Made by a program: the position numbers and the translations under genes
Part shown: positions 20,100 through 36,886 of the stretch, in pieces
How the letters are laid out: every line of letters begins with the position of its first letter
Position numbering within the stretch: position 1 is the stretch's first letter
Assembly (NCBI GenBank): GCA_965221775.1
Contig: CBDCSU010000005.1
Location: forward strand, 576,001 to 640,000
Origin: Candidatus Latescibacterota bacterium
GTDB lineage: Bacteria > Latescibacterota > UBA2968 > UBA8231
Length of the DNA stretch: 64,000 bases
Reading direction: 5' to 3'
Notes under the pieces: generated by a model
Databases searched by the model: none
Told to the model about the DNA's origin: nothing
Seen by the model: the letters and a program-made list of their open reading frames with translations, nothing else

Positions 20100-20104
20100 C
20101 AGCC

Positions 20105-20407
20105 TCAGGGCCGCGGGCGGCGGCCGGCGCCGCGGGCCACGAGGACCACCTCCAGGCCGAGGAAGACCAGGTAGGCCACGATCAGGCCGGCGGCGTAGCC
20201 GGTCCTGTGCGTATCCGTGAACCACAGCAGGATGAGGGAGACGGCGGCCACGAGCATCAGCCTGGCCACGGTGCCTCCGAGGATGGCGACCACCAGGGCC
20301 CGGGGGTGCCTCGCGCCGAGGCGCAGACCGACCCAGGCGATGACGGCACTTGCGGCGGCCACCAGGACTCCTGCGGCGGCGGCGATCCATGGATCCTGCA
20401 TGATCAT
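20105..20407 (-). CDS. atpI: ATP synthase protein I-like membrane protein
   Basis: About 100 aa, 3-4 TM segments, GGTVARLML motif, located before atpB. Confidence 0.65.
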   Translation of the reverse strand: MIMQDPWIAAAAGVLVAAASAVIAWVGLRLGARHPRALVVAILGGTVARLMLVAAVSLILLWFTDTHRTGYAAGLIVAYLVFLGLEVVLVARGAGRRPRP

Positions 20408-20652
20408 TCCCCTTTCTCGAGATCCTTCGGCCAGCCGCCGGAGACCAGGGTCCGGCACACCTGGTAGAACGCTGCCGCGGCACCGATGAGGGCTCCCGCG
20501 ATCAGCAGCCACGGCGACGTTCCGAGCCCGCCGTCGGCCCACCACCCGGCGGCGGCGCACAAGGCCACGGTCACCGCGAACTGCACGCCGAGGCCGGCCA
20601 GGCGGCCCAGCTCACGAAGCGCCCCGCGCTGCCCGCCGTCGCCGCGACTCAT
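20404..20652 (-). CDS. atpZ: AtpZ/AtpI-family (ATPase gene 1) small membrane protein
   Basis: GLGVQFAV...GWWADGGLGTSPWLLIAGALIG motif. ATG overlaps the nuoN stop. Confidence 0.8.
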   Translation of the reverse strand: MSRGDGGQRGALRELGRLAGLGVQFAVTVALCAAAGWWADGGLGTSPWLLIAGALIGAAAAFYQVCRTLVSGGWPKDLEKGE

Positions 20653-22055
20653 CGGAACCCCGCCGCCGCCCCGGCGACCTCCGCCGCGCGGGCGACGGGC
20701 GCCGGCCACAGGCCCAGCAGCAGCAGCAGCCCGGCGCTCAGGACCGCCGCCGAGAGACCCCCCGCATCCGGCGCCAATGCCTCCGGGGACTGCTCCCGCC
20801 CCCAGGCGACGCGGGCGGCGAAACGGAGGAATACCCAGGCGGTGAGCAGAGCGTTGGCCAGCAGCAGGACGAAGCCTGCCGACGAGGTCTCGGCCAGACC
20901 TGCGAGCAGGGCCGCACGGGAGGCGAAGGCGGCCGTGGGCGGCAGGCCGGCGAGGGCGATGAGGCAGACGCACAGGGCGGCGCCGGCCACCGGCTCCCGG
21001 CGGGCCAGTCCGGCCGCCGTCCCTGCCCGGCCGATGAGGCCGCTCACCGCCAGCCCTCCCCCGAGGGCGAGGACCGCCGCCGTGAGCTGCAGCCACAGGC
21101 CGGGAGACGGGCCGGGGCCCGCCGCGAGGGCCGCCAGGCCATACCCCGCCTGGATCACCACGCCGTACCCCAGCAGCCTGGTGAGCCTGCGCCGGGGCAG
21201 GGCCAGCAGGTTGCCGGCCGTCACCGTCACCAGCGAGGCGGCCAGCAGCAGCGACGGCAGGTCCGGACGGACCTCGGCCAGGACCTCCACCAGCCGGCCG
21301 CCGACCACCAGGGCCGGGACCACGGAGACAGCCACCGTCAGCATCACCGCCGAGGGTGCGCAGCCGGCGCCGATCTCGCCAACCCAGTAGTGGAAAGGCA
21401 CGGCCCCGGCGCGCACCGCGAGGCCCGTCAGCAGCAGACCACCCCCGACGACGGTCATCGCCGCGGATCCCGCGGCGGCGCCCCTCGCCAGGTGGTCCCA
21501 CTGGGAGGTACCGGCTCCCGCCCACAGGCAGGCGATGCCCAGGAGGGTCAACCCCGTGGCCGCGGCCATGGGACCGGCCTGGCGCAGGACGGCGCGGGCG
21601 GCGGCGGCGGGTCCGAGGGCGTTGCCGGCGATCAGACTCGCGGAGGCCAGCTCCAGACCGATGAACAGGACCACGAGATCCCGGGCCGAGACAGCCACCA
21701 TGGCGCCCAGGACGCCCAGGGCCGTCAGCACCCCGGCCGCCGCCCGGCTGCCGGCCGCGGCCGGTGAGCCCGCCATCAGCAGGCCGGCGAGCACGGCTCC
21801 CCCGAGGATCAGCAGGTCGGCGAAGGCAGCCACCGGGTCGGCGTACAGCAGTCCGTGCCGCCCCAGGGAGACGGGATCCCAGGCCTGCAGCGACAGGGAG
21901 AGGGCCACCAGAAGGCCCCCCAGGGTGAGAACGGCCGGCGCGCGGCCGGGGCGACGCGGCCAGAGCGCGGCGTCGAGCAGGGCCAGACCGATGGCCAGCA
22001 GTCCCAGGCTCGTCTCCGGCGCCAGGTCCGGGCCTGCCAGGTCCGTCCACCTCAC
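20649..22055 (-). CDS. nuoN: NADH-quinone oxidoreductase subunit N-like (highly divergent)
   Basis: LAPE, DLVVLFIGLEL, AVPFHYW, RLLGY...AGY, LAGLPPTAAF. GTG at 22055 overlaps the nuoM stop. Confidence 0.8.
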   Translation of the reverse strand: MRWTDLAGPDLAPETSLGLLAIGLALLDAALWPRRPGRAPAVLTLGGLLVALSLSLQAWDPVSLGRHGLLYADPVAAFADLLILGGAVLAGLLMAGSPAAAGSRAAAGVLTALGVLGAMVAVSARDLVVLFIGLELASASLIAGNALGPAAAARAVLRQAGPMAAATGLTLLGIACLWAGAGTSQWDHLARGAAAGSAAMTVVGGGLLLTGLAVRAGAVPFHYWVGEIGAGCAPSAVMLTVAVSVVPALVVGGRLVEVLAEVRPDLPSLLLAASLVTVTAGNLLALPRRRLTRLLGYGVVIQAGYGLAALAAGPGPSPGLWLQLTAAVLALGGGLAVSGLIGRAGTAAGLARREPVAGAALCVCLIALAGLPPTAAFASRAALLAGLAETSSAGFVLLLANALLTAWVFLRFAARVAWGREQSPEALAPDAGGLSAAVLSAGLLLLLGLWPAPVARAAEVAGAAAGFR

Positions 22056-23482
22056 GGCCGGAGGCCCTCGGCCGGCCCGGTGGATGTCGGGGAGCCCGCC
22101 ACCATGCGCTCGATGACCGGCCGGGCCCCGGATAACAGCGGCTCCGGGCGCAGACCGAATACCCCGGCGGTGGCGATGACCAGGGCCAGAACCCAGCCCA
22201 GGGCCCCGCGGCCGGACGCAGGCGGTCTCCTCGCCAGACCGACCACCGGATCGAGGAGCGCCAGCGCAAGGACTCCCGATGAGAGGATGAGGAGCCAGCC
22301 CAGGACCGGGTGGGCCGCCAGGACCCCCGCCATCAAGGTCAGCCAACCGGGCAGGGCCCCGCCCCCCGGGGCGGCGGCCACGGTCAGGCCGAGGGCCAGC
22401 CAGGCCCATGCGGTGCGCAGACCGCCGGCGCCCCGGTCCTCGATCCACAGGGCGAGAAGGAGCAGGGAGGCGCGCGGCAGGGCGATACCCGCGGCCAGGG
22501 CCGCGGCTCCGAGGGCCTGGAGGCTGCCGGGCGCGAAGACCCCGGCGGCCATCAGGGCTCCGGTGGAGGCCACGGCCAGGGCCGCCCGCCGGGACAGGCC
22601 GGGGCGCGGCTGGACAACCGCCAGCATCGCCGTCCACAGTGCGCTTGCGCCGGCCCACAGCCCCAGCCAGGGAGAGGCCGCCAGGGCTTCGGCCGGAAAC
22701 AGGGCCAGCCAGAATCGCAGCAGACCGAAAGCCCCCACCGCGCACCAGGCGCCGGAGATCAGGATCCTCCCGGAGAGGGCGCCGGAGGTGCACACCGGGA
22801 CCAGCCAGGTATGGAACGGCACGAGGGGGATCTGCATGGCCAGGGCCGCCGCCGCCAGGGCCGCCGCCGGGCCCCCGTGGGAGACGCCCGCGGCGGCGAG
22901 TTCGTCGACGAGGGTGCTGCCGCTCCCGGCGCCGCCCAGGGCCGCGGCGGCGGCCAGCATCAGGGAGCCGCTCGCCGCCCAGTGAGCGAAGCGGCGGCCG
23001 GCGCGCCCGCTGCCCGCTGCCCGGCCCAGGCCGAGGACCGCCGCCAGGGCCAGACCGGCGAGACCGTGGCCGGCGGCCGCCACCATCAGGTCCCGGGAGG
23101 TCAGCACCAGGGCCATCCCCCCGGCGCCGGTCAGGGCCAGGGCCAGCCGGGCCCGGCTGGGAGTGCCCCCGAAGCGGCCTTCCACGCACACCGCCAGCAG
23201 CAGCACCGCCGCCAGGGCCAGCAGGGCGTACCGGTTGAGGCCATCGACGGCCAGCGACAGCCCGGAGCCCGTGGTCGCCAGCCACGGGGCGGTAAACCCC
23301 CAGGAGAACTCCCGTCCGTGGGGGGCCGCCAGACATGCGAGGCCGGCGAGGAGCAGCAGACCCGCCGCGGCGGCGGTGGAGACCCTTCTTGCGGCGAGCC
23401 CCCGCAGCGGCGCCAGGGCGAGGCCCAGAGCCGCGCCCAGGGGCAGCAGGACGATGGACCAGGCCACGAAGGGGGCGGCCAC
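22052..23482 (-). CDS. nuoM: NADH-quinone oxidoreductase subunit M-like (highly divergent)
   Basis: PWL..G..LSLAVDGLN, IPLVPFHTWL, FGLLRF, GVFGLRP. Confidence 0.78.
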   Translation of the reverse strand: MAAPFVAWSIVLLPLGAALGLALAPLRGLAARRVSTAAAAGLLLLAGLACLAAPHGREFSWGFTAPWLATTGSGLSLAVDGLNRYALLALAAVLLLAVCVEGRFGGTPSRARLALALTGAGGMALVLTSRDLMVAAAGHGLAGLALAAVLGLGRAAGSGRAGRRFAHWAASGSLMLAAAAALGGAGSGSTLVDELAAAGVSHGGPAAALAAAALAMQIPLVPFHTWLVPVCTSGALSGRILISGAWCAVGAFGLLRFWLALFPAEALAASPWLGLWAGASALWTAMLAVVQPRPGLSRRAALAVASTGALMAAGVFAPGSLQALGAAALAAGIALPRASLLLLALWIEDRGAGGLRTAWAWLALGLTVAAAPGGGALPGWLTLMAGVLAAHPVLGWLLILSSGVLALALLDPVVGLARRPPASGRGALGWVLALVIATAGVFGLRPEPLLSGARPVIERMVAGSPTSTGPAEGLRP

Positions 23483-23483
23483 C

Positions 23484-25187
23484 TCAGCGGCCTCCCATGG
23501 ACCACAGGATCACCAGCACCACGCCCGCTGCCAGGGCCGCCGCCCAGAGCCGCCGACCGGCGTGCTCCACCCGCGCCAGGGTCCAGCCCGCTCCGCGGAG
23601 AACCAGGCCCAAGGCTCCCCAGGCGGCGCCGAGGACGGCGCCGTCGACGAAGGTCCACAGGCCCCGGCCCAGGGAGGTGGCCGCCACGGCCGCCCCCTGC
23701 TGCGCGGCGCCGGCGCCAAACCCGCCGGCGGCGAGCCGGCGCGGGGCCGAGGCAGGCCGGGAAGCCGGCTTCAGACCCCGGCGCCAGATCAGGGCCGCGA
23801 CTCCCAAGGCGCCGGCGTTGGCCGCGGCGGCCAATCCGACGCCGTCCATGGAGGGCGCTGGCAGGCGCAGCCAGGCGAGGGCCGGCAGAGCCGCCAAGAC
23901 CAGACCCGCCGAGACCGATCCGGCCGCGATCGGGAGAGCCGGCCGGACCACCTCCTTCGACTCGGCCGGTGGAGCCGCCCCTGGAAAGGGTGAGAGGGCG
24001 AGACGGCCCACGGAAAGGACCGCCAGGACAAATGGGCCCAGGGCGGCGGCCATCCCCGCGGGTCCGTAGCCGCCGTAGGCATGCTTCAGAAGGAGTGCCT
24101 GACCCCACAGCCCGGTGAGGGAGAGGCACGGGACCAGGACGGCGGCCAGGCACATCCACCGGGCCGCCGGCAGGGAGCGGCCCAGCCCGCCCAGATGGTC
24201 CAGGCGCTCCACCGCCGGAAGGGCGGCCCTGACGAGACCGGTACCCGCGGCCAGGCAGAGGCGGGCCCCAAGGGCCGCGCTCAGCACCAGCCATCCCGCG
24301 ATTGGATCGGCTGCGGCCGCCGCCGCCACCAACCCGGACTGGGCTACCGTAATCCAACCCTGGACCCGCTGCAGTCCGTAGCTTGCCAGTGCCGCCGCCG
24401 AGGCGGCGACGGCAGCCGCCAGGCCGACAACGAAGACCACCTCCTGCAGGGCACCGGCCAGAGGGCCGGCCCGGGTCAACAGGGATGCGCCGGCCACGGC
24501 CAGAACGCTCGCCTCGGGGGCGGAGGCCGGGCTCGCCGAGGCCTCCAGGATCCACTGGTGAAGAGGCCAGACGCCGAGGCCGATGACGGCCGCGAGGAGG
24601 AGCAGGCCGGCGGCCGGTTCCGGCCAGGGGTTGCCTTCGTGAAGGCCCCCTCCCGCCAGCGAGGCGGCGGCGGCGGCCATCAGGGCTACCGAACCGATGC
24701 GAGTCAGCAGCAGAAGGCGGCGGGCGCCGGCTTCGGAGACCTCCCCGGACCTGGCGGCCGTCACCAGGAGGGCGGCGACGGCGATCTCCCATCCCAGCAG
24801 CAGCGGCAGCCAGTCGGCGGCGCACGACAGCAGGGCCACTCCCACGGCGGCCACCGTGATCAGGGCCCGGTGGACCCCGTCGATGGCCGGCTGGGCCAGG
24901 GGATACAGCAGACCGACGACGGCGGCGCCCAGGGCAGCCGCCGCGGGCCCGTCGGCGCGCAGGTCGAACCCGAGGCTGGCGCCGCCCACTTCCATCCATG
25001 TACCGAAGACGAGACGGACGGGACCGGCGCTGACCGCTCCCCCTGCGAACCCGGCGGCGGCGAGGCATGCGAGGAGCCGGAGAGCGTGGGCCGGCCGCGG
25101 CCGTCCTGCAAGGTCGGCCGCGGCGGCTCCGGCGAAGGCCAGGAGGACGGCGGCGAGGGCCGCACCCAGAGTCGGCGCGTCGGTCAC
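23484..25187 (-). CDS. nuoL: NADH-quinone oxidoreductase subunit L-like (highly divergent)
   Basis: WMEVGG...FDLRAD, LLLGWE, TRIGS, WPLHQWI, LGGLGRSLP, FVDG. Confidence 0.75.
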   Translation of the reverse strand: MTDAPTLGAALAAVLLAFAGAAAADLAGRPRPAHALRLLACLAAAGFAGGAVSAGPVRLVFGTWMEVGGASLGFDLRADGPAAAALGAAVVGLLYPLAQPAIDGVHRALITVAAVGVALLSCAADWLPLLLGWEIAVAALLVTAARSGEVSEAGARRLLLLTRIGSVALMAAAAASLAGGGLHEGNPWPEPAAGLLLLAAVIGLGVWPLHQWILEASASPASAPEASVLAVAGASLLTRAGPLAGALQEVVFVVGLAAAVAASAAALASYGLQRVQGWITVAQSGLVAAAAAADPIAGWLVLSAALGARLCLAAGTGLVRAALPAVERLDHLGGLGRSLPAARWMCLAAVLVPCLSLTGLWGQALLLKHAYGGYGPAGMAAALGPFVLAVLSVGRLALSPFPGAAPPAESKEVVRPALPIAAGSVSAGLVLAALPALAWLRLPAPSMDGVGLAAAANAGALGVAALIWRRGLKPASRPASAPRRLAAGGFGAGAAQQGAAVAATSLGRGLWTFVDGAVLGAAWGALGLVLRGAGWTLARVEHAGRRLWAAALAAGVVLVILWSMGGR

Positions 25188-25456
25188 GGGTGGGGCGCCT
25201 CTCCTGACTTGTCGGCGGCCTCCCGGCGGACCAACGCCAGCACGAGGCCCGCCTGGACCCCCGCCGCGGCAACCGCGGCGACGGCCAGCACCCGCCCATC
25301 GGCGCCGAGGAGGGCCACCACGGCCATCACCCCGCCGAGGATCCCGACCTGCCCGGCCACCAGCGGCGCGAGGGCATGAGACCGGAGCAGGGCGGCCCCG
25401 ACGCCGGCGGCCAGGAGCAACGCGGCCAGCGCCAGGACCCATGCGGTCGCGGTCAC
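25184..25456 (-). CDS. nuoK: NADH-quinone oxidoreductase subunit K-like (highly divergent)
   Basis: 90 aa, 3 TM segments, LAALLLAAGVGAALLR, DGRV; located between J and L with GTGA overlaps. Confidence 0.65.
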   Translation of the reverse strand: MTATAWVLALAALLLAAGVGAALLRSHALAPLVAGQVGILGGVMAVVALLGADGRVLAVAAVAAAGVQAGLVLALVRREAADKSGEAPHP

Positions 25457-25905
25457 GAGGCCTCCATGCCGGGATCCGGCCGCCGACAGAGGGCGCCGAT
25501 CCCGACCACCGCCGAGAGCAGCAACAGTGCTCCGAGGACGACGGCCGGAACGCCGCTGCGCGGCGGCTCCGCGGGCGGGGGCGGTCCTGCCGCCGAGGCG
25601 GCGGCCAGGGCCGTGGCCAGGACCGCCCCCAGCCCCAGGACCACGATCGCCGACAGGAGCCGGGGCGGAGGGCTGGCGCCGCTGGCGGTCAGCGCCGCCG
25701 GCGACGAGGCCGCCGCCAGCCCCACCGCCGCCTGCACCAGGAGCACGGCGGCGGCGGTGAAGGCGTCGTGCAGGGCGGCGATGGCGGCCACCCCGGCCCC
25801 GGCGAGACCCAGGCAGACGCAGGCGCCGTGGGGCGAGCGCCAGCAGGCGGCGGCGAGGGCGCCCCCACCGGCGGCGGCGGTGGCGGCGAGAAGGATCAGC
25901 TCCAC
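25453..25905 (-). CDS. nuoJ: NADH-quinone oxidoreductase subunit J-like (highly divergent)
   Basis: RSPHGAC.CL (equivalent to NPVHSAL.L), LHDAFTAAAVLLVQ, LLLLSAVVGI.AL; operon position. Confidence 0.62.
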   Translation of the reverse strand: MELILLAATAAAGGGALAAACWRSPHGACVCLGLAGAGVAAIAALHDAFTAAAVLLVQAAVGLAAASSPAALTASGASPPPRLLSAIVVLGLGAVLATALAAASAAGPPPPAEPPRSGVPAVVLGALLLLSAVVGIGALCRRPDPGMEAS

Positions 25906-26828
25906 GGCAGCCACCCCGCGGAGCGGAGGACCGAGAGGGCGAGGTCGATCAGGGCGAGGGGGACGATGCGCGTCCAGGCCGCGCGCGCGAGCCCCGCGGG
26001 CGTGCCGTCCGACAGGCTGGACCCGAGGACCACGGCCGAGGCCAGCACCGCGGCGGCGGTCAGACCGGGCAGGATCTCCACCCAGCCGGCCGCCGCCGGC
26101 AGGCCGCCGCCGAAGAGGTGGTAGGCGAGGAGGGCGGCCGCCCCCATCTGCAGGTACCGCGACAGGGACAGCCACACCGGTGCCGTTCCGGAGGCCGGAC
26201 GCAGCCCCGCCCGGCGGCCGCCGAGCACCGATCCGGTGCAGCGGCAGAGGATGGCGAGGGCCCCGACCCAGGCCGCCGCCCCCGCCGGATGGGACCACAG
26301 GGGCCAGGCCCCCGGGGTGCGGGAGTACGCCGCCAGCACCGGACCGCCGTCGATGACCAGCGCCGCCGCCACCAGCAGAACCGCCAGGTGGCATCCGATG
26401 ATGGCCCCGGCGCCCGCCATCAGGGCCCGTTGCCCCTCGGCCCCGGCCAAGGCCGCCGGCAGCAGCCACGCCTGGACCGAGACCGCCAGCAGCGCCACCA
26501 GCAGCAGGGCCTGCACCGTTCCGCCCCCGGGGGCCACCCCCGGAAGAGACAGGCCTCCCACGCCAGCGCCGGGGGGCAGCAGAGCGACCAGGGCCAGAGC
26601 CGGCAGCAGGGCGGCGAAGGCGGCGGCCCCCGCTCCGGGGGCCGGCCTTCCCGATCGTGCCATCACCTTGGCGGCGTCGGCCACGGGACCGAGGAGGGGC
26701 GGACGGCGCAGACCGTTGACGCGGGCCAGCGCCGCACGCTCGACGATGGCGCTGACGAAGGCGAGACCGAGGGTACCGAGGAAGACGAGGAAGGCGTCGC
26801 CGGAGGAGATGTCGGCAGAGGAGGTCAC
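25896..26828 (-). CDS. nuoH: NADH-quinone oxidoreductase subunit H-like (highly divergent)
   Basis: VER...GPVADAAKV, C-terminal AWTRIVPLAL, about 8 TM segments. Confidence 0.72.
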   Translation of the reverse strand: MTSSADISSGDAFLVFLGTLGLAFVSAIVERAALARVNGLRRPPLLGPVADAAKVMARSGRPAPGAGAAAFAALLPALALVALLPPGAGVGGLSLPGVAPGGGTVQALLLVALLAVSVQAWLLPAALAGAEGQRALMAGAGAIIGCHLAVLLVAAALVIDGGPVLAAYSRTPGAWPLWSHPAGAAAWVGALAILCRCTGSVLGGRRAGLRPASGTAPVWLSLSRYLQMGAAALLAYHLFGGGLPAAAGWVEILPGLTAAAVLASAVVLGSSLSDGTPAGLARAAWTRIVPLALIDLALSVLRSAGWLPWS

Positions 26829-28435
26829 GGCCGGATTTCGGGATCGGCGGAGGGGACGAGGCCGCGGCGCTGCAGCCAGCTCGACCAGCCGCCGCCGAAG
26901 GCGGGCCCCGATGTCGGATGGTCATCGTCGTCGAGGGTTCGGTAGTCGAGGCCGGCGAAGGGTTTGCATCGAGTCCGGGCCAGCCGCGCGAAGACCTGGT
27001 CCGCCGAATCGCGGTTGGGACCGCCGTGCCAGAGGGCGCTGAGGATCCACAGGTCCGGTCTGGCGTCGCCGGGAGGCTCGACGGCGGAGCGGACCCGCCG
27101 CACCCGGCCGAGGCCATCGACGAAGGTGCCCTCCTTCTCGGTCCAGGCGCTCCCGCCCGCCAGGGCGATGGCGGCTCCGTCCACGAGCGGCGACGGGGTG
27201 AGGTCGTGGGCGATGAGCCGCGTCTCCGGACCCGGAAGCGGGCCCGGGCCCTCTCCGCACAGAGAGCCTCCCACGGCGTACACCACGTCGAGGCCTGCGG
27301 GCAGGTCGCCGGCCGGAAGCGGGGACGATCCCGACGCCCGGGCGACAGCCTGGACTCCGGCCGCGTTCGGACCCCTGGAGGCGCTGATCGTGAACCCTCC
27401 GGGAAAGAGGCGGTCTCCCTCGGGGTCCGCCGCCTCCCACGAGTAGACGGCCGCTCTCCACCGGTGGGCGAGCTGGATGAGCAGGAAGGCCTCCTCGTTG
27501 GTCAGGTAGGGGCTCAGGACCACCGCGGAGCGGCGCGCCTGCTCCATCTCTTCGGCAACGCCGGCCAGGGCCGTGTCCCAGGCCGTCTCCCCGCCCTCCC
27601 GGCGCGGAGCCAGCAGGCGTTCGACCTCCGGCTGCCAGCCGTAGCGGCCGTGATCGCACAGCCAGAAGCCGCCTTCGGGGTTCTCGGGCCGGGGCTTGAC
27701 CCTCCACACACGGCCGTCGTGCACGTCCACCCGGGTGGCGCAGCCGCTGGCGCAGCCGGCGCACACGCTCGACACCCCCGTCAGCCGCCACGGCGGCGGG
27801 GCCTCGCGTTCCCCGGGGTCGCTCAAGGCGCCTGCCGGGCACAGGTCGAGAAGGTTGCCCGCCATGGGCCCTGCGGCTTCCTCACCGGCACTGGCGGCGA
27901 TGCCGGCGCCCGCCCCGCTGCCTTCGACGGCCAGCACCGGCTCCCCGGAGACCTCCTCGCCGAAGCGGACACAGCGGGTGCACAGGATGCATCTGCGGCG
28001 GTCGAGGACGAGCCGCGGCCCGAGGACGAGACGCTCCGGCGCCTCCGGCGCCTCGGAAGGCGTTCGGCCGCCCCCGGCAACCCTCACCGCCTCCTGCAGC
28101 TCGCACTCGCCCGCCCGCTCGCAGACGGCGCAGTCCGCCGGATGGCGCAGCAGCAGGTCGTCGAGCACGCGCTCCCGGGCCTCCGCCGCTTCGGGCGCAT
28201 CGAGGGAGACCGACATCCCCCCGCCGACCCTGTGATTGCAGGTGGTGATCAGCTCCGGCCCCCCCGGCCCCTCCAGGGAGGCCAGGCACAGACGGCAGGA
28301 GGCCGGCGCCGAGAGGGCCGGATGGAAGCAGGGGTGCGGCAACGGGCGGCCAGCCGACAGCAGGGTCGTCAGGAGGTTCGCCCCCTCCCGAGCCTCCACG
28401 GCCTCCCCGTCCACGTGGATGGTGACGATGGCCAT
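26825..28435 (-). CDS. nuoG: NADH-quinone oxidoreductase subunit G-like (short form)
   Basis: C.HP..S...SCRLC...C (N1b), HPADCAVC....ECELQ (N5), CILCTRC...CP (N4), CAGCASGC...CD.GR (N7), EKEGTF. Confidence 0.88.
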   Translation of the reverse strand: MAIVTIHVDGEAVEAREGANLLTTLLSAGRPLPHPCFHPALSAPASCRLCLASLEGPGGPELITTCNHRVGGGMSVSLDAPEAAEARERVLDDLLLRHPADCAVCERAGECELQEAVRVAGGGRTPSEAPEAPERLVLGPRLVLDRRRCILCTRCVRFGEEVSGEPVLAVEGSGAGAGIAASAGEEAAGPMAGNLLDLCPAGALSDPGEREAPPPWRLTGVSSVCAGCASGCATRVDVHDGRVWRVKPRPENPEGGFWLCDHGRYGWQPEVERLLAPRREGGETAWDTALAGVAEEMEQARRSAVVLSPYLTNEEAFLLIQLAHRWRAAVYSWEAADPEGDRLFPGGFTISASRGPNAAGVQAVARASGSSPLPAGDLPAGLDVVYAVGGSLCGEGPGPLPGPETRLIAHDLTPSPLVDGAAIALAGGSAWTEKEGTFVDGLGRVRRVRSAVEPPGDARPDLWILSALWHGGPNRDSADQVFARLARTRCKPFAGLDYRTLDDDDHPTSGPAFGGGWSSWLQRRGLVPSADPEIRP

Positions 28436-29752
28436 TCAGAACCGCACGTGGATGCTCTCGGGGGACTTCATGGACAGATCCTTGGCCACCGGGCAGCCGC
28501 CGTCCAGATGGGCCTCGAACTCCTCGGCGAAGGCGGCGGCCAGGGCGCTGACCGCGGAACCGGCGAGGGGTCCGTGCCCGCACAGGGCCAGGGACGAGGT
28601 CAGGGACGCGGTCCTGGAGCGCAACTGCTCCAGCTCCCCCGCGCTCGAGGCGCCGGCCTCGAGCCGCTCGAGGGCGCCGGCAGCCCAGGCCAGACCCTCG
28701 CGGCATGGCGGGCACTGGGCGCAGGACGCGCCGGCCAGGGAGGACGCCACCAGCCGCGCCGTGTCCACGGCGCAGACCGTCTCGTCGGCGACGATGACGG
28801 CCCCCGAACCGAAGTCGCCGTCGAGGCCGCCGCCGCCGGGGCGGCTCCAGGCCCCGGGATCGACGGGCCGGTCGAGATCGGCCTCGCGCAGCACGGGCCG
28901 GGAACCGTACCCGGAGTGGAGGACGAACTTCAGGGGCCGGCCTTCCGGCGTCCCCCCCGCCAGCCCCTCCACCAGACCGCGGAAGGTGCCCGAACCGAGG
29001 GCCACCTCATACAGACCCGGGCGGCGCACGAGGCCGCTGATGCAGAAGACCTGGGTCCCCGGCGCCGAGGCGCTGCCCACGGCGCGGAAGGCGGCGCTCC
29101 CCCCCGCCATCACCCGCGGCAGGTAGCCGAGGGTGGAGGCGGTATGCACGGCGGCAGGCTCACCGAAGAGGGTGGCGGCCGGCCCCCGGGTGCCGTCCGC
29201 TGCCCTCGGCTCGGGGCGGCCGCCCTCGATCAGGTTGAGGGGCAGGCTGTCGCCCGCGGCGATCGGCAGCGGTCCGGGCACCGGGTGCAGGTGGATGGCC
29301 AGACCGTGGCCGCCGATCTCTCCCGCCTCGCCCAGTTCCGCAAGGGCCGCGGCCAGGGCCTTCCGCGCCCGCAGCGCGTCGGCGCGGATGCAGAGGAAGG
29401 CCGCCGAGGCGCCGGTGGCCAGGGCGGCGATACGCACGCCCTCCAGCAGCCGGTGGGGGTGGCGCTCCGCCAGCTTGCGGTCGCGGAAACGGCCCGGCTC
29501 CGGCTCCAGCAGGTCGGCCACCAGGTAGCGGGCGCCGCCGCGCTCCCTCAGGGCCTGCCAGCGCTCCCCCACCGGCCGCCAGGAGCCGCCGCGGCCTCTC
29601 AGGCCGGAGGCCGTCACCTCCTCCGCCACCCCCTCCGCTCCCAGGGCCCGGGCCCGGTCGATGCCCTCGCCGCCGCCGCCCCGGCAGTAGACCTGGTAGC
29701 GCTCGACGTCGGGCACGTCGATGCCCTCGAAGAGCAGGCGGTGCTCGTTCAC
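28436..29752 (-). CDS. nuoF: NADH-quinone oxidoreductase subunit F-like (divergent FMN site)
   Basis: SGLRGRGG, EPG.F.DR, ISG.V.RPG.YE, GSGAVIV, SCAQCPPCREG...C (N3). Confidence 0.85.
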   Translation of the reverse strand: MNEHRLLFEGIDVPDVERYQVYCRGGGGEGIDRARALGAEGVAEEVTASGLRGRGGSWRPVGERWQALRERGGARYLVADLLEPEPGRFRDRKLAERHPHRLLEGVRIAALATGASAAFLCIRADALRARKALAAALAELGEAGEIGGHGLAIHLHPVPGPLPIAAGDSLPLNLIEGGRPEPRAADGTRGPAATLFGEPAAVHTASTLGYLPRVMAGGSAAFRAVGSASAPGTQVFCISGLVRRPGLYEVALGSGTFRGLVEGLAGGTPEGRPLKFVLHSGYGSRPVLREADLDRPVDPGAWSRPGGGGLDGDFGSGAVIVADETVCAVDTARLVASSLAGASCAQCPPCREGLAWAAGALERLEAGASSAGELEQLRSRTASLTSSLALCGHGPLAGSAVSALAAAFAEEFEAHLDGGCPVAKDLSMKSPESIHVRF

Positions 29753-30168
29753 GCCGCCTCTCCCGAGACCAGGTCGTCGAGGCGCCCGGGGGTCAGCCCC
29801 TCGAAGAGGCGACCCCCGCGCTCGAAGGCGGGTGCCGCCGAGCAGACGCCGAGGCAAGGGACGGGGATCACGAGATCGCCGAGACGTTCTCGCATCCGGC
29901 GGACGACCTCGTCGCCCCCCATGAGCCGGCAGCTCAACCCCGCGCAGACGCGCACCCGGTCCCGGGACCGGCCGGCGCCGCGGCTGGAGGCGATCCCGGC
30001 GACGGCGGCGGCCGACAGTCCCGTGAGCCCGGCGATCCAGCGCGCCGCCTCGAGCTCGCAGGCGCCGCGGTCGGTCAGCACCAGGTCGATGAGGGGCATC
30101 AGGGCCCCGGAGGGCCTGGGGTAGCGGCTCAGCAGCTGCCGGGCGCGATGCTCCAGGGCCTCGTTCAC
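29749..30168 (-). CDS. nuoE: NADH-quinone oxidoreductase subunit E-like
   Basis: RYP...ALMPL, VCAGLSC...CLGVC..AP ([2Fe-2S] N1a). Confidence 0.85.
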   Translation of the reverse strand: MNEALEHRARQLLSRYPRPSGALMPLIDLVLTDRGACELEAARWIAGLTGLSAAAVAGIASSRGAGRSRDRVRVCAGLSCRLMGGDEVVRRMRERLGDLVIPVPCLGVCSAAPAFERGGRLFEGLTPGRLDDLVSGEAA

Positions 30169-31685
30169 CGGTCCATCTCGGAGGCGATGACGTTGAGGCT
30201 GGCCACCACCTGCGGTGCCTGGGCGTAGCCGACGCCCGCCAGCAGCGCCGGGAGGACGCGGAAGTGGTACAGCGAGGGCGAGCGCAGGTGGACCCGGACC
30301 GGGCCGCCGGCGCCGTCGGAGACCAGGTAGAAGGCCAGCTCGCCGTCGGCGGACTCGATGGGGAGGTAGATGTCGGACCGCTCGGGACGATACCCGTGCC
30401 CGTCCATCCAGCGCTCGAAGTGGTCGATCAGCTCGGCGGGCTCCGTGGAGCGCACCGTCGGCCGGGGGGCCTCGTGGGCCAGGGTCGGTCCGCCGGGGGC
30501 GCCGGCCAGGCACTGGCGGGCGATGGAGAGGGACTCCCCCATCTCCTCGATGCGAACCCGCGTGCGCTCGACGACATCGCCGGAGTCGGCCGTGGGCACC
30601 CCGAACCGGACCTCCCCGTAGGCGAGGTAGGGCTCGGTGCGCCGCACGTCGAGGTCGATGCCCGCGGCGCGGGCGGCCGGCCCCGTAACCCCGGCGCCCA
30701 GGGCCTCGGCGGCGTCGAGAACCCCGGCGCCGGAGAAGCGGCGGCGCCAGTCCCGGTGGCCCACCGTGCCGCGCAGGGCATCGGCGCGCAGCCGGTCGAC
30801 GGCGCCCCCCAGGTCGGCCAGCAAGCGGCCGGCGCCGGCGGGCACGTCGGCGGCGATCCCGCCGATGCGCTGGGTGCCGGTGGCCCAGCGGCAGCCGCTG
30901 GCGGCGGCGAGAAAGCGCGCCGCCGCCTCCCGGGCGGTCAGGGCCTGGCCCCACAAGACCGAATCGGGCCCCGCCAGGTTGGCCAGCCAGGCGCAGTGGG
31001 CGGCGATGCGGCTGATCTCGGCCAGCAGCATGCGCACCCAGGTGCACCGGGGCGGCGGCTTGATCCCCAGCAGGGCCTCGGCGGCGAGGATCGCCGCCAG
31101 GCCGGGCACGAACGGCGCCTGCTCGTTGAGGCTCTCGGCCAGCACCGGCAGCTGGGCCCAGGTACGGCTCTCGGCGAGTCTCTCGAAGCCGCTGTGGAGC
31201 CGTCCCGGGCGGGCCGTGGCCGTTTCGATCCGGCCGCCGCGCAGGCGCGCCCCCAAGTCGAGCCGGAAAGGGGTGGCCTCGGAGGGGTCGGGGATCGGCA
31301 CCTCCCCCTCCGGCGGCGGCGGCATCTCTCCGGGGACCATGGCCGGCGGCGCGGGGAACAGCGGCCGCAGGTCCTCCCGCCCCTCGATCCGCATCCCGAA
31401 GCGGCCGGCCATCTCCCGCTCCGGCCAGTCGGCGGCGGGCCAGATGTGGGCCAGCCCCGGCAACTCGCCGGCCCCGGTGGCGGTCAGCCGGATCCGGTTC
31501 CCCGCGGCCGAGCGGAGCTGGTAGACCGCGCGGAGTGGAGAGTCGGTGCCGGCGCCGCCCACGGCGGTGAGGTCGACGAGATGCAGCGTCGGGTCCGCCG
31601 CCAGCAGCGCCTCCACCTGCGGCTCCAGCCGGCCGGCGGAGACCTCCATGGCCGCCGCGGCCTCCGGCGGGGCGGCGGCCGTCAC
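30165..31685 (-). CDS. nuoCD: Fused NADH-quinone oxidoreductase subunit C/D-like (divergent)
   Basis: NuoC part DLTAV...VYQL...WPAADWPEREM..FG; NuoD part EISRI..H, GVTGP..RA.G..D.R...PY, ES.DGE, EMDR C-terminus. Confidence 0.85.
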   Translation of the reverse strand: MTAAAPPEAAAAMEVSAGRLEPQVEALLAADPTLHLVDLTAVGGAGTDSPLRAVYQLRSAAGNRIRLTATGAGELPGLAHIWPAADWPEREMAGRFGMRIEGREDLRPLFPAPPAMVPGEMPPPPEGEVPIPDPSEATPFRLDLGARLRGGRIETATARPGRLHSGFERLAESRTWAQLPVLAESLNEQAPFVPGLAAILAAEALLGIKPPPRCTWVRMLLAEISRIAAHCAWLANLAGPDSVLWGQALTAREAAARFLAAASGCRWATGTQRIGGIAADVPAGAGRLLADLGGAVDRLRADALRGTVGHRDWRRRFSGAGVLDAAEALGAGVTGPAARAAGIDLDVRRTEPYLAYGEVRFGVPTADSGDVVERTRVRIEEMGESLSIARQCLAGAPGGPTLAHEAPRPTVRSTEPAELIDHFERWMDGHGYRPERSDIYLPIESADGELAFYLVSDGAGGPVRVHLRSPSLYHFRVLPALLAGVGYAQAPQVVASLNVIASEMDR

Positions 31686-32020
31686 GGAGACTCCTGCCGG
31701 GCGGGCCGCCCCCCCCGGCGCCCGGCGTGGATCAGGGCGATGGCGATGACCAGGACGAGGAGCAGCATCGGAAGGAAGCCCCCGGCGCTTTCGGACTCGG
31801 CGGCCAGGAGCACGAGGAGCACGACGGCGCCGGAAAGGGCCGGGGCGAGCCAGGCGAGGGGCCGCCATGGGTCACCGGTCTCGACCTCGCCGGCGGCGGG
31901 CTCAGCGGACGACGGGGTCTCCCTGACGGGGCCGGCGAGGGCCCGCCGCAACAGGGCGGCCAGTACCCCCAGCAGCAGCCAGAGGCCGAAGTAGGTGAAG
32001 AGGGGCAGGTAAGCGGTCAA
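31682..32020 (-). CDS. nuoA: NADH-quinone oxidoreductase subunit A-like (highly divergent)
   Basis: TTG start with GGAGG RBS, YLPLF N-terminus, 3 TM segments, 112 aa, first gene of the nuo run. Confidence 0.62.
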   Translation of the reverse strand: MTAYLPLFTYFGLWLLLGVLAALLRRALAGPVRETPSSAEPAAGEVETGDPWRPLAWLAPALSGAVVLLVLLAAESESAGGFLPMLLLVLVIAIALIHAGRRGGRPARQESP

Positions 32021-32079
32021 CGACCCGGCCTCCCGGGGTTGGAGGTGGTCCCGGCGCCGCGGGAGACCGCCCTTCGGCT

Positions 32080-32366: not shown

Positions 32367-33605
32367 TCAGCTGCCGAAGTCGTCGAAGCGGATCATCTCC
32401 TCTTCGACGCCCAGATCGTCGAGCATGGCGAGGACCGCCGTGAGCATCATGGGAGGGCCGCAGAGGTAGTACTCGATGTCCTCCGGCGCCGGGTGCTTGC
32501 TCAGGTACTCGTCGAGCACGACCTGGTGGATGAAGCCGGTGGGGCCGGTCCAGTTGTCCTCGGGCAGGGGCTCGGACATGGCCACGTGGAAGGAGAAGTT
32601 CGGGAACTTCTCCTCGAGGTCGCGGAAGTGGTCCTCGTAGAACAACTCCTTGCTCGACCGCGCCCCGTACCAGTAGGAGACCTTGCGTTGCGTGCCCTCG
32701 GTGTGGAACAGGTGGAACAGGTGCGAGCGCAGAGGCGCCATGCCGGCGCCGCCGCCGATGTAGCACATCTCGCGCTCGGTCTCCTGGATGTAGAACTCCC
32801 CGTAGGGGCCGGAGATCGTCACCTTGTCGCCCGGGTCGAGGGCGAAGGTGTACGACGAGGCCAGGCCCGGGTTGACCTTCTCCCAGCCGCCGGCCTTGCG
32901 GTCGATGGGCGGCGTGGCGATGCGGATGTTGAGCATGACGATGTCGCCTTCGGCCGGGTGGTTGGCCATGGAGTAGGCCCGCACCGCCGTCTCCGTGCCC
33001 ACCGTGCGCAGGTCCCAGACCTTGAACCGGTCCCAGTCCTCGTGGAAGCGCTCGTCGATGTCGAAGTCCCGGAAGCTGCACTCGAAGGGCGGCACCTCGA
33101 TCTGGATGAAGCCGCCGGACTGGAAGTCCAGGGTCTCGCCCTCGGGCATCTTGAGGACCAGCTCCTTGATGAAGGTCGCCACGTTGTCGTTGGAGACGAC
33201 CTCGCACTCCATGCGCTTCACCGAGAACACCTCGGGCGGGACCTCGATCTTCATGTCCTGCTTGACCGTCACTTGGCAGGAGAGGCGCTCCCCCTCCTTC
33301 TCCTCGCGCCGGGTGATGTGCTCCTTCTCGGTGGCCAGGATCTCGCCGCCGCCGTCGTGGACCTTGACCCGGCACTGGGCGCAGGTGCCGCCGCCGCCGC
33401 AGGCCGAGGAGACGAAGAGGCCGTTGTCGGCGAGCACGTTCAGCAGCTTGCCGCCCGCCGGGGTGACCAGGTCGCGCTCGCCGTTGACCTCGATGTTTAC
33501 GTCGCCCGTGGCCACCAGCTTCGAGCGCGCCGCCAGGATGACGGCCACCAGGGCCAGGACCACGCCGGTGAACATGCTCACGCCGCCGAGGATGCTGTCG
33601 ATCAT
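32367..33605 (-). CDS. nqrF: Na+-translocating NADH:quinone oxidoreductase subunit F
   Basis: [43 protein letters not shown]. Confidence 0.98.
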
Positions 33606-33619
33606 CAGTCGGTCGCTTC

Positions 33620-34234
33620 CTACAGCTGGATGCCGGAGAAGGCCATGAAGGCCATGGCCATGAGGCCCACGGTCATGAAGGTGATGCCCAGGCCGCGCAG
33701 GCCATGGGGTATGTCGGCGTAGCGCAGCTTCTCGCGGATGCCGGCGAGTCCGACGATGGCCAGGGCCCAGCCGACGCCGGAGCCGAAGCCGAAGACGACG
33801 CTCTCGCCGAAGCCGTAGTCGCGCTCGACCATGAACAGGGAGCCGCCGAGGATGGCGCAGTTCACCGTGATCAGGGGCAGGAAGATGCCCAGGGCGGTGT
33901 ACAGGGCCGGCACGTACTTGTCGAGGAACATCTCCAGGATCTGAACGCTGGCGGCGATGACACCGATGTAGCTGATGAGCCCCACGAAGGTGAGGTCGAC
34001 GCCGCCGAGGCCGAGGGCCGCCAGGGCCTCCTCGCGCAGGAGATGGCGGTAGACCAGGTTGTTCAGGGGCACGGTGATCGTCTGCACGACGACGACGGCG
34101 ATGCCGAGGCCGAAGGAGGTGGAGACGCGCTTGGAGACGGCCAGGAAGGTGCACATGCCGAGGAAGAAGGCGAGGGCGATGTTCTCGACGAAGACCGCCT
34201 TGACGAAGAGGTTGAGGCCGGCCTCGAACATCAC
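33620..34234 (-). CDS. nqrE: Na+-NQR subunit E
   Basis: [31 protein letters not shown]. Confidence 0.97.
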
Positions 34235-34884
34235 ACCCCCTCCTCAAGCGGCTGATCGACCGCAGGATCTTTGGCGATCTGCCTGGGTTTGAACCATCGC
34301 AGCACCCAGATGAAGGCGCCGATGATGAAGAAGGCGCTCGGCGGCAGCAGCATCAGGCCGTTGGGCACGTACCAGCCGCCCTCCGACGCCAGGGCCAGGA
34401 TCTCGGCGCCGAAGAGCTTGCCCGAGCCGAAGAGCTCGCGGAAGACCCCCACCACCAGCAGGATCAGGCTGTAGCCGAGGGCGTTGCCGAGGCCGTCGAG
34501 CATGCTCAGCCCGACGCCCTCCTTCATGGCGAAGGCCTCGGCCCGGCCCATGATGATGCAGTTGGTGATGATGAGCCCCACGAAGACCGACAACTGCTTG
34601 CTCATGCCGAAGGCATAGGCGCGCAGAAACTGGTCGACGATGATCACGAGGGAGGCGATGACCGTCATGTGCACGATCATGCGGATGTTGGTGGGGATGT
34701 GGGTGCGGATCAGGCTGATGGCGCCGTTGGAGAAGACGAGGACGAAGATCACCGCCAGGCACATGGTGACCGACGTCTCGAGCTTGCTGGTCACCGCCAG
34801 GGCCGAGCAGATCCCGAGGATCTGCAGGGCGATGGGGTTGTCCTCGAAGACAGGGGCCAGCAGGGTGTCTCGGGCCTTGCCCAT
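34231..34884 (-). CDS. nqrD: Na+-NQR subunit D
   Basis: [35 protein letters not shown]. Confidence 0.97.
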
Positions 34885-34887
34885 GGT

Positions 34888-35664
34888 TCAAGCCTCTCCT
34901 TCGTCCCGCAATCGCTCCAGGAAGGGGCCGTAGCCCTCCCCGCCGAGCCAGTAGTGGAGCATGTCCTGCACGCCGCGCGAGGTGATCGTCGCCCCCGACA
35001 GCCCGTCGACGCTGTGCACGGCGTCCGGGGCGCCGGCGGCGACGGCACCCCGCGGGATGCGGATCGCCACCCGGCCGTCGTCGCCGAAGGCGCGCTTGCC
35101 GTTCCACTGCGCCTTCCACGCCGGGTTGTCGACCTCGCCGCCGAGGCCGGGGGTCTCGCCGTGCTGGTAATATACGAGGCTGCGGATCGTGTCGAGGTCG
35201 TCCCGGTCGAGGGCGACGAAGCCGTAGAGGGTCGACCACAGTCCCCGGCCGAAGATCGGCATGATCACCTTGTCGACCTCTCCCCGGCGGCTGACCAGGT
35301 AGACGGGCATCAGTCTGGCGCGGCGCCGGATGCCGGCGCGGCTGCCCAGCTCGGAGGTGTCGACCCCCTGCTCGGGGTCGGCGGCGGCGGCGATGTAGTC
35401 GTAGGCGCCGGGATCGACGCCGTCCACGTAGGCGCCGGTGGACAGGTCGACGATGCGGACCTCGATGCGCTCGAAGAGCTCGTCGATGGTGCGGCCCTCC
35501 TCGGCGAGGCCCGCCGCCATCAGGATGTTGCGCTTCTTGTCCAGCAGCTTGTTGATCTCCTGGGTGGGCCGCAGCACCACCGCCGCCCCGGAGACCAGGA
35601 CCGAGCAGACGACGCACAGGAGGAAGGCGACGGTGAAGGTCTGGCCCATGCTCTCTCTGGCCAT
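34888..35664 (-). CDS. nqrC: Na+-NQR subunit C
   Basis: GRGLWS, HGETPGLG, flavinylation motif VDGLSGATITS. Confidence 0.96.
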   Translation of the reverse strand: MARESMGQTFTVAFLLCVVCSVLVSGAAVVLRPTQEINKLLDKKRNILMAAGLAEEGRTIDELFERIEVRIVDLSTGAYVDGVDPGAYDYIAAAADPEQGVDTSELGSRAGIRRRARLMPVYLVSRRGEVDKVIMPIFGRGLWSTLYGFVALDRDDLDTIRSLVYYQHGETPGLGGEVDNPAWKAQWNGKRAFGDDGRVAIRIPRGAVAAGAPDAVHSVDGLSGATITSRGVQDMLHYWLGGEGYGPFLERLRDEGEA

Positions 35665-35675
35665 GGCGCCGTCCC

Positions 35676-36884
35676 CTACGATACGGCCGTGCGCAGGGCG
35701 CGCCGGCGGATGTTGGCCTGCACCACGAGGTAGTCGAAGACCGGGGCGAAGACGTTGCCGAAGAGGATGGCGAGCATCACCCCCTCCGGGAAGGCCGGAT
35801 TGACGACCCGGATGAGCACGGTCATGACCCCGATCAGGGCGCCGTAGAGCCACTTGCCGAGGTTGGTGAAGGAGGCCGACACCGGGTCGGTGGCCATGTA
35901 TACGCAACCGAAGGCGAAGCCTCCGAGCAGCAGGTGCCAGACCGGGTCGAGGGCGAACATGTGGTTGGTCTGGCTGTCGACCTGGTGCAGCAGCCAGGCC
36001 AGCAGGAAGGTGGTGGCCGTCATGCTCGCCATGATGCGCCACGAGCCGATGCCGGTGGCGATGAGGATGACGGCGCCGATGAGGCAGGCCAGGACCGAGG
36101 TCTCGCCCATCGACCCGGGGAGCACCCCGAGGAAGGCCTGCATCTTGGTGAAGCCCGCCTCCATGGGGGCGATGCCGTCGGCCGGGACCTGGCCGAGGGG
36201 GGTGGCCCGGGAGTAGCCGTCGACGGCGACCCAGATGCGGTCCCCCGTGATCTCCACCGGGTAGGCGAAGTAGAGGAAGGCGCGGGCCGTGAGGGCCGGG
36301 TTGAGGAAGTTCTTGCCCGTGCCGCCGAAGATCTCCTTGCCGATGACGACGCCGAAGGAGATGCCCACCGCCACCTGCCACAGGGGGATCGTCGGCGGCA
36401 GGGTGAGGGGGAAGAGCATGCCCGTCACCAGGAAGCCCTCGTTCACCTCGTGGCGGCGGATCGTCGAGAACAGGGCCTCCCAGAAGCCGCCCACGGCGTT
36501 GCACACCAGGAAGACCGGCAGGAACCAGAGGGCGCCGTGGACGACGTTGGCCACCAGGCTGCCCGGGTCGACGCCGACCCCGAGGACGGTGAGGACGACC
36601 CCGCGCCAGCCGTCGGCGGTGGTGCGGCCCAACTCGGCCAGGGCCAGGTTCGCCTGGTACCCCGTGTTCCACATGGCCATGAAGATGCACGGCACCATTG
36701 CCAGAACGACGGTGATCATCATGCGCTTCAGGTCGAGGCCGTCGCGCACGTGGGCGGCGTTGCGGGTGACGTCGGAGGGGGTGTACAGGAACGTGTCGAC
36801 CAGCTCGTAGAGCGGATAGAGGCGCTCGAGCCGTCCGCCCCGCTCGAAGTGGGGCTCCACCGAGTCGAGGAGCTGGCGCAGCAC
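35676..36884 (-). CDS. nqrB: Na+-NQR subunit B
   Basis: [55 protein letters not shown]. Confidence 0.97.
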
Positions 36885-36886
36885 GA

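Follow-up and report, generated by a model that had tools for sequence, protein, structure and literature searches.

As a rule, complex I is either an active enzyme or missing altogether. Scattered nuo genes, two isozymes within one genome and complexes without NuoEFG are already known, as described in the available parts of PMC4758237 and PMC4453560. Here we analyze an operon of 11 contiguous nuo genes, nuoA-CD-E-F-G-H-J-K-L-M-N (32020..20649), which we call nuo2. It is found in a 64,000-nucleotide stretch of the Gemmatimonadota genome G000 (GenBank assembly GCA_965221775.1, contig C5, positions 576001-640000; hereafter the window), between the nqrA-F genes of a Na+-translocating NADH:quinone oxidoreductase (Na+-NQR) upstream and atpZ-B-E-F-H-A-G-D-C downstream. 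We find that nuo2 is a split 14-subunit complex I paralog, not a complex lacking NuoB and NuoI, and that its genes are under purifying selection and are not decaying neutrally.

In subunit set, gene order and C-D fusion nuo2 resembles the canonical 14-subunit complex I with a fused NuoCD (the NUO13-type in the available part of PMC4758237), with which it shares all iron-sulfur (Fe-S) motifs, N7 included, and the full helix count of NuoL, NuoM and NuoN. It differs in having nuoB and nuoI at two other loci, in its short NuoG (~540 aa), and in the replacement of the flavin mononucleotide (FMN) motifs, the quinone-site His and Tyr, the NuoH motif and most of the Lys and Glu residues of NuoL, NuoM, NuoN and NuoK. 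The 11-subunit enzymes without NuoEFG (NDH-1, Fpo; available parts of PMC3144371, PMC11238625) are like nuo2 in that NADH would not be used at NuoF, but they keep NuoB, NuoI, the quinone site and the pumping residues, whereas nuo2 has an N-module with an eroded flavin site. Bacteria with two isozymes (Spero et al. 2015, PMC4453560) carry, like G000, two nuo sets of different clades per genome; in the accessible part of that study these are complete, colocalised 14-gene sets presumed active, unlike the split and degenerate nuo2. The same part includes one Gemmatimonadetes entry and states that a genome missing any subunit in a cluster was scored by chromosomal placement.

Full-text literature searches, together with the available parts of PMC4758237, PMC4453560 and PMC11651109, yielded no account of a Gemmatimonadota nuo set that is split or degenerate, a result on which supplementary gene tables could bear; nor did they yield a description of an orthologous series in which complex I is intact, then stripped but selected, then deleted. 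We give a probability of roughly 55% to the reading that nuo2 has a maintained non-canonical role needing an assembled Fe-S arm, mainly because the unlinked nuoB2 and nuoI2 genes have been kept, ligands included, exactly where the operon has been kept.

Fe-S ligands are kept and catalytic residues are replaced

In order to characterize the residues of nuo2, we aligned each subunit to E. coli K-12 and read residue numbers from these alignments; the roles of the checked residues, including which residue binds which cluster, we take to be those of the E. coli and T. thermophilus literature. All features of interest lie on the minus strand at 20.4-38.3 kb of the window. The original prediction, made from the window alone, held that the quinone-site, FMN-site and pumping residues were lost and the Fe-S ligands kept, and the alignments agree. 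All 36 Cys/His ligands of clusters N1a, N3, N1b, N4, N5, N7, N6a/b and N2 were kept in every sequence aligned. They comprise the N1a Cys of NuoE2 (4/4; 29749..30168, 139 aa, Pfam 2Fe-2S_thioredx and alignment), the N3 Cys of NuoF2 (4/4, with SCxxCxPCREG intact), the N1b, N5, N4 and N7 ligands of NuoG2 (16/16; 26825..28435, 536 aa, a short form identified by Pfam Fer2_4/NADH-G_4Fe-4S_3/Fer4_Nqo3 and alignment), and those of NuoB2 (4/4 cluster Cys, CC...C...CP) and NuoI2 (8/8, in two CxxCxxCxxxCP motifs).

This is contrasted by the flavin, quinone and proton-path residues. In NuoF2 (28436..29752, 438 aa; Pfam Complex1_51K and NADH_4Fe-4S, with PDB and series alignments) the FMN/NADH motifs read GRGGSWR for GRGGAGF, ADLLEPEPG for NADExEPG and PGPLPIAAGDS for GAGAYICGEE, and in the series alignment GAGRYICGEETAL has become VPGPLPIAAGDSLPL and VNNVET has become VHTAST. 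In NuoD2, part of the fused nuoCD2 (30165..31685, 506 aa; Pfam Complex1_30kDa and Complex1_49kDa), the His loop GPNHPSAHG is replaced by DPSEATPF and RIEY by SLNE, a Tyr to Glu change (E. coli His224 and Tyr273); an acidic residue (E or D) takes the place of this Tyr in G014, G022, G023 and throughout the window genus. The conserved E-x-E-L-V-x-G-Y-H-x-E-Y-S loop motif is absent from NuoH2 (25896..26828, 310 aa, 7 transmembrane (TM)-like segments), a protein without a Pfam match that was placed by orthology via G001 and tblastn.

Among the antiporter-like subunits, NuoL2 (23484..25187, 567 aa; Pfam Proton_antipo_M and alignment) keeps E144 and has K229 replaced by G, K342 by R and K399 by Q. 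NuoM2 (22052..23482, 476 aa; Pfam and alignment) shows E144 to G, K234 to Q, K265 to A and E407 to W, and NuoN2 (20649..22055, 468 aa; jackhmmer and alignment) keeps E133 and shows K217 to R, K247 to V and K395 to R. In NuoK2 (25184..25456, 90 aa; jackhmmer K match and alignment) E36 is Q and E72 is G. Of 14 charged proton-path residues checked in L, M, N and K, 2 are thus kept, 3 are K to R and 9 are lost. The predicted TM architecture of nuo2 is kept, with TM-like segment counts in the membrane proteins of 3/7/5/3/15/11/14 versus 3/8/5/3/17/15/12. By its 14 core subunits and its Fe-S ligands nuo2 belongs with complex I, and by its FMN, quinone and proton-path residues it does not; it also falls outside the 11-subunit type, in which EFG are absent and B, I and D intact, as E, F and G are in the operon.

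The same residues were followed through the relatives, in a residue series covering the nuo2 copies other than that of G013. The split operons of G028, G030 and G040 keep GPQHPATHG and DRMNY in NuoD, GRGGAWF, NADESEPG, GAGAYICGEE and VNNV in NuoF, the NuoH loop motif, E36 and E72 of NuoK and all 12 of the Lys and Glu residues checked in L, M and N. G017, G022 and G023 are intermediate, with different residue subsets lost in each, and G014 and the window genus (g1) have lost nearly all catalytic residues. Even the intact copies carry a signature of the split clade, NuoF GRGGAWF for GRGGAGF and NuoB2 (V/I)(A/S)GR for VAGT.

We considered whether nuo2 is still a working redox enzyme, in which remodelled NuoF2 and NuoD2 pockets bind another donor or acceptor, with or without ion translocation; examples would be a ferredoxin-type one-electron donor feeding the clusters directly, and a non-quinone or differently bound acceptor. 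The full N3-to-N2 cluster chain is kept together with N1a and N7, constraint is tighter in the peripheral arm than in the membrane arm, the acidic NuoD Tyr position is common to several lineages, and known relatives of complex I have swapped donors (flavodoxin, F420H2, ferredoxin; available part of PMC4453560). However, no new partner gene was seen within the nuo2 operon, the replacements are not common across the family, 9 of the 14 charged membrane residues and the quinone/E-channel motif of NuoH2 are gone, and sister genera live without the operon. A working enzyme of this kind therefore seems improbable to us.

NuoB2 and NuoI2 are encoded at unlinked loci

Neither an Oxidored_q6 (NuoB) nor a NuoI profile match was found in the window, which places B and I outside the operon and leaves it with 12 of the 14 complex I core subunits, C and D being fused. 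A genome-wide search of G000 returned two Oxidored_q6 and five NuoI matches, all outside the window, of which one NuoB and one NuoI match belong to a canonical 11-subunit operon (see below). One further match of each kind is an orphan gene on contig C4: nuoB2 (G000:C4:1022623-1023027, ~130 aa) between dnaJ and prmA, and nuoI2 (G000:C4:274204-274641, 146 aa) between rny and dxr, 16 nt behind rny and overlapping the dxr start. Both proteins are as Ala/Arg-rich as those of the nuo2 operon.

NuoB2, NuoI2 and NuoD2 diverge in step, with identities to G000 of 87/87/88% in G007, 62/56/57% in G001 and 39/52/40% in G017. A model of NuoB2 with NuoD2 gave an ipSAE (interface score from predicted aligned errors) of 0.80 where the best of three controls gave 0.00; the runs share at least 96% of contacts and the partner pLDDT (predicted local distance difference test) is at least 78. 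Among solved complexes, 58 of 80 pass the mark applied to ipSAE, as do 2 of 110 mismatched pairs, and because the NuoB-NuoD pair is already among solved structures we read this pass as likeness to those structures and not as binding. From co-occurrence, rate and model together we infer that NuoB2 and NuoI2 belong to the nuo2 complex.

These results revise the original prediction in several respects. Its statement that nuoB and nuoI are missing holds for the operon but not for the genome, and the pattern it described as opposite to that of reduced complex I relatives, which lose EFG and keep B and I, is not supported, as the orphan genes carry all of their ligands, co-occur with the operon and show the same dN/dS (ratio of nonsynonymous to synonymous substitution rates). 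An ordinary split complex I, which it named as the result that would overturn it, is borne out in that nuoB and nuoI orthologs exist elsewhere; the key residues, however, are absent in the alignments.

The canonical nuo operon that the original prediction proposed looking for is present 0.8 Mb away at G000:C5:1398294-1408094 (L048) and encodes nuoABCDHIJKLMN without EFG, with textbook quinone-site and pumping motifs. This raises the question of whether NuoE2, NuoF2 and NuoG2 serve as the N-module of the 11-subunit complex, the rest of nuo2 being ballast, and they are in fact the best conserved nuo2 proteins (tblastn to relatives). The eroded FMN/NADH motifs, however, would leave NuoF2 unable to provide NADH oxidation. 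Constraint is similar on CD2, the membrane subunits, B2 and I2, and both genus g17 and those nuo2-less genera that carry the 11-subunit type manage without EFG. We consider such a donation very unlikely.

A second NuoF-like gene of G000 was observed at G000:C6:1747364-1752164 (L047), a 641-codon frame with a Complex1_51K match of 133 bits that adjoins a 967-codon frame with a 4Fe-4S match. This pair may be an NAD-linked formate dehydrogenase or a hydrogenase diaphorase.

Distribution of nuo2 and its relation to Na+-NQR

A comparison set of 41 genomes, G000 and 40 relatives, was searched for nuo2. NuoD of the nuo2 type was detected in 19 genomes (G000-G002, G004-G009, G013, G014, G017, G022, G023, G026, G028, G030 and G040 being those listed), namely in 8 of the 9 other members of the window genus (90-56% identity), in five more genera of its family (~40%) and, outside that family, in two others of the class (34-37%). 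The search among relatives for the same operon without B and I, which the original prediction had suggested, was thus productive in all three groups. Every genome with a nuo2-type NuoD also has B2- and I2-type matches, and neither nuo2 nor the orphans were found in G010-G012, G016, G018, G019, G024 or any of the 12 genomes of genus g17. The degenerate form spans at least five genera (g1, g6, g9, g14, g15) and the whole radiation of the window genus.

Among the relatives' loci the order nqrF-nuo2-atpB was seen in 9 of 14, and nuo2-atpB in 2 more. The intact split nuo2 of G028, G030 and G040 is orthologous to that of the window by tree and synteny: its order is A-CD/C,D-E-F-G-H-J-K-L-M-N, with atpB next in family f3, and B and I likewise lie outside the operon, I2 behind rny. 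The motifs of these copies are kept, their dN/dS is 0.17 and NqrA was not found in their genomes; the window copy has a 3-4 times faster dN. The split layout is old, as it also occurs in relatives from other families of the class, and the position of the I2 ortholog directly after rny in G028 also indicates that the split is ancestral. In the NuoD tree the f1 nuo2 copies form a long-branched clade beside the short-branched nuo2 of f3 and f4. The EFG-containing operon of G015 and G021 is of another kind, with B and I included, and the G015 copy groups with E. coli in the tree.

Two loci of other families carry additional genes. L084 (G028:C16, 4706-7478, f3) holds a small group of complex I-like parts: the nuoB2 ortholog is followed, two genes downstream, by another NuoB-like gene and by a 4Fe-4S dicluster gene. 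A hexapeptide-transferase gene separates the pair of NuoB-like genes, and DUF1854 and glycosyltransferase genes lie upstream. At L025 (G040:C3, 15807-19900) a second J/K-like run and two antiporter-like genes follow nuoM in place of nuoN-atp; this run could represent a membrane module that is Mrp-like or duplicated.

NqrA was found in 34 of the 41 genomes. It was not found in G015, G021, G026, G028, G030 and G040, nor in G003 (76% complete), and the first six coincide exactly with the genomes whose EFG-containing complex I is catalytically intact (G026 judged from a partial locus). Degenerate or deleted nuo2 always occurs in an NqrA-bearing lineage, and all degenerate copies lie directly downstream of nqrF. 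All four of the nuo2-less family members inspected have atpZ 0.4-0.7 kb behind nqrF, and the orphans were not found in them; these joints are clean excisions of the whole nuo2 operon. The pattern fits a scenario in which the presence of Na+-NQR freed nuo2 from NADH oxidation. The suggestion in the original prediction of a snapshot of decay after replacement by Na+-NQR is consistent with this link, but it is too short a picture for a degenerate state found in at least five genera.

The nuo2 genes are under purifying selection

Values of dN/dS were calculated by the Nei-Gojobori method with a bootstrap over codons. For nuo2 of G000 they were 0.40 (95% confidence interval 0.35-0.45) against G007, 0.36 (0.33-0.39) against G006 and 0.44 against G001, and 0.19 was obtained between G001 and G009; nqrF and atpB gave 0.13, 0.21, 0.18 and 0.10 for the same four pairs, with atpD excluded because its matches were paralogs on truncated loci. 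The canonical 11-subunit nuo gave 0.16 and 0.22 and the intact f3 nuo2 0.17. Values for the orphans were 0.32 and 0.24 (B2) and 0.29 and 0.34 (I2), and nuoJ2 gave 0.71/0.40. The peripheral arm is under stronger constraint (0.31-0.35) than the membrane arm (0.41-0.57). Overall the dN of nuo2 is 3-4 times higher and constraint is relaxed about 2-fold. Its dS is also raised, 0.17 versus 0.11-0.12 in the flanks, as expected of weakly expressed genes.

The 11 nuo2 genes of G000 contain no internal stop codon, and indels with a length divisible by 3 make up 8 of 11 in the comparison with G007 and 16 of 21 in that with G006, the remainder being compensating pairs or lying at gene junctions. In G007 only, the last ~39 codons of nuoF2 are out of frame through a +1/-1 pair (L018, G007:C1 ~11290-11440, corresponding to window 28436-28554), which removes the stop before nuoG2 and produces an F-G fusion frame. 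Degenerate copies are also common to at least five genera, and to a genus within which NuoD2 identity is as low as 56%, which likewise speaks against neutral decay. Taken together, the stops and frameshifts, indels of any length and dN/dS of ~1 that characterize a neutral pseudogene are not the picture found here.

The original prediction had taken the absence of stops and frameshifts as favoring selection. Selection is indeed indicated, by the dN/dS of 0.19-0.44, with confidence intervals below 0.5, and by the in-frame indels, but the argument from open frames is weak on its own, because wrong frames in this T-poor, GC-rich stretch are also open, for up to 944 codons. A dN/dS near 1, which it had named as the sign of neutral decay, is not what these measured values show.

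Organization of the locus and the nuo2-atp junction

The boundaries of the 11 genes were read from the DNA and supported by Pfam and jackhmmer matches; the earlier description of uninterrupted frames in nuo order with mostly GTGA/ATGA overlaps proved accurate, on the minus strand. GTGA overlaps join A/CD, CD/E, E/F, G/H, J/K, K/L and M/N; H/J overlap by 10 nt, F/G meet as TGA-ATG and L/M are 1 base apart. Profiles seeded with E. coli proteins (jackhmmer) match CD, E, F, G, K, L, M and N in the window and do not match A, H or J in the window genus, and Pfam scores are low for complex I (65.6 bits for the NuoF FMN domain, 40.5 for L, 26.7 for M). A, H and J were identified from their position, their TM content and their orthologs in relatives. 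NuoA2 (31682..32020, 112 aa, 3 TM-like segments) has a TTG start behind GGGAGG and is supported by position, start codon and overlap; the gene at the same position is matched in G017, G022, G023, G028, G030 and G040. NuoJ2 (25453..25905, 150 aa, 5 TM-like segments) is called from its reading frame and a GTG start overlapping the nuoH2 stop. A plus-strand reading was rejected, as none of the 10 long open reading frames on that strand matches any Pfam family; they are open because the strand is T-poor.

Precisely over nuo2 (window 20001-32000) GC content is 75-77% and AT skew +0.14 to +0.40, with flanking bins mostly at ~67-72% GC and a skew near zero (G000: 5.36 Mb, ~70% GC). Ala, Gly, Arg and Pro together make up 47% of the nuo2 proteins, compared with 33% for the canonical nuo of G000 and 31% for the flanks; Lys makes up 0.4%, compared with 1.8% for the canonical nuo. 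The nuo2 proteins are 34-60% identical to those of G001, compared with 83% for nqrF and 79% for atpB. The composition and the divergence from the flanks both match what was first reported for this stretch. High GC, skew and raised dS over nuo2 fit weak codon selection combined with GC-biased drift.

Directly upstream, nqrA-F (32367..38245; Pfam NQRA domains, FMN_bind and Fer2/FAD/NAD) is separated from nuoA2 by 346 nt. Downstream, the first gene of the atp operon, atpZ/atpI-like (20404..20652; Pfam ATPase_gene1), has an ATG overlapping the nuoN2 stop (ATGA), and ispB follows the last. An N-type ATPase was considered upon the ATPase_gene1 match and dropped, the order Z-B-E-F-H-A-G-D-C being that of an ordinary F-type operon. 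It is the sole F-type ATP synthase of G000, with a single ATP-synt_A match genome-wide. Because this sole atp operon starts in the nuoN2 stop overlap, its expression may depend on transcription and translation passing through the 11.4 kb of nuo2.

This dependence is the basis for another explanation, that nuo2 is a functionless relic held by its position. Stops or frameshifts in nuo2 would be polar on atp, its proteins would be selected only to be foldable and non-toxic, which would preserve Fe-S ligands and hydrophobic helices, and only a clean deletion rejoining a promoter to atpZ would remove it; the orphans would be held likewise inside the dnaJ-prmA and rny-dxr strings, where nuoI2 overlaps the dxr start. 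The nuoN2/atpZ overlap (ATGA/GTGA/TGATG) is present in all five genus members inspected, the nqrF-atpZ joints are clean in all four nuo2-less relatives, and a weak consensus promoter/terminator scan, uninformative for a 75% GC Gemmatimonadota stretch, gave no terminator-like site in 19900-33000. Lineage-specific catalytic erosion, drift to GC-rich codons and raised dS are also what a relic would show. Polarity explains the open frames, but neither a dN/dS of 0.2-0.45 nor 36 of 36 ligands in every lineage. Furthermore, the nuoN2-atp junction is non-overlapping in G014 and f3, and nuo2 of G014 is equally degenerate and intact. B2 and I2 are unlinked, yet they are present with the operon and not found where it is gone, so their value is tied to the complex. 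We regard the relic explanation, the strongest of the alternatives, as less likely than a maintained role.

Proposed role and evolution of nuo2

Several points weigh against a maintained role for nuo2. Replacements vary from lineage to lineage, a pattern resembling drift and not a shared new active site, and composition drift, raised dS and repeated whole-operon deletion are what an outgoing gene set would show. Co-occurrence has exceptions, as G003 (76% complete) and G020 (84%) have B2 and I2 with nuo2-type NuoD not found, and G010 has one weak NuoI-like match (7e-8). Because the genomes are related, as few as two or three events may underlie the NQR pattern. Nei-Gojobori dN/dS is rough at ~90% GC3 (GC at third codon positions), and the nuoF2 frameshift of G007 could be an assembly error or real, recent decay. 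Loss of nuo2 function is deduced from residues whose roles are those described for E. coli and T. thermophilus. For transcription we have a weak hint: one RNA library labelled as a sponge metatranscriptome (share of sampled words 0.05) holds contigs ~90% identical to parts of nuoN2, nuoL2 and nuoH2 (20452-21028, 21090-21999, 24352-24946 and 26197-26669), one of which bridges nuoN2 into atpZ. Their depth is like that of the same library's atp contigs, but they show neither level nor strand, and DNA carry-over is possible.

Setting these points against the co-retention of B2 and I2, we propose the following course for a maintained nuo2. In relatives where Na+-NQR was not detected, the split nuo2 is presumably the NADH:quinone proton pump. 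In the family with nqr directly upstream, nuo2 would have been freed from NADH:quinone pumping; the FMN/NADH pocket, the quinone His/Tyr and most antiporter Lys/Glu residues would then have been replaced lineage by lineage, most fully in the window genus, as amino-acid composition drifted toward GC-rich codons. Purifying selection would have kept the nuo2 proteins as a foldable complex, with Fe-S ligands, TM architecture and a modellable B2-D2 interface. The cell would thus still make a complex I-shaped Fe-S membrane complex that, judged by its residues, would neither oxidize NADH at a flavin, reduce quinone at the canonical site nor pump protons. The role that remains may be structural or may lie in relaying electrons with other partners, and it would be dispensable enough for several sister genera to have deleted the operon and the orphans together.

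A bolder form of this proposal, which we hold tentatively, is that a whole 14-subunit complex I has become a selected "pseudo-enzyme," Fe-S-wired and without flavin site, canonical quinone site or proton path, that serves a non-respiratory role in marine and sponge-associated Gemmatimonadota and arose when Na+-NQR took over NADH oxidation. Such an assembly might, for instance, sense redox state, store electrons or act structurally as a partner of the neighboring NQR or ATP synthase.

For metagenome-assembled genomes from sponge and marine habitats, operon-based annotation would label nuo2 "incomplete" and homology-based reconstruction would label it an active NADH dehydrogenase, and both would mislead. 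Within one clade the same operon forms a graded series, intact where NQR was not found, partly eroded, stripped but selected, and cleanly deleted. This series shows which features of a ~500-kDa redox pump are released last, the Fe-S ligands, the fold and the helix architecture, and it provides a testable case of functional replacement by Na+-NQR.

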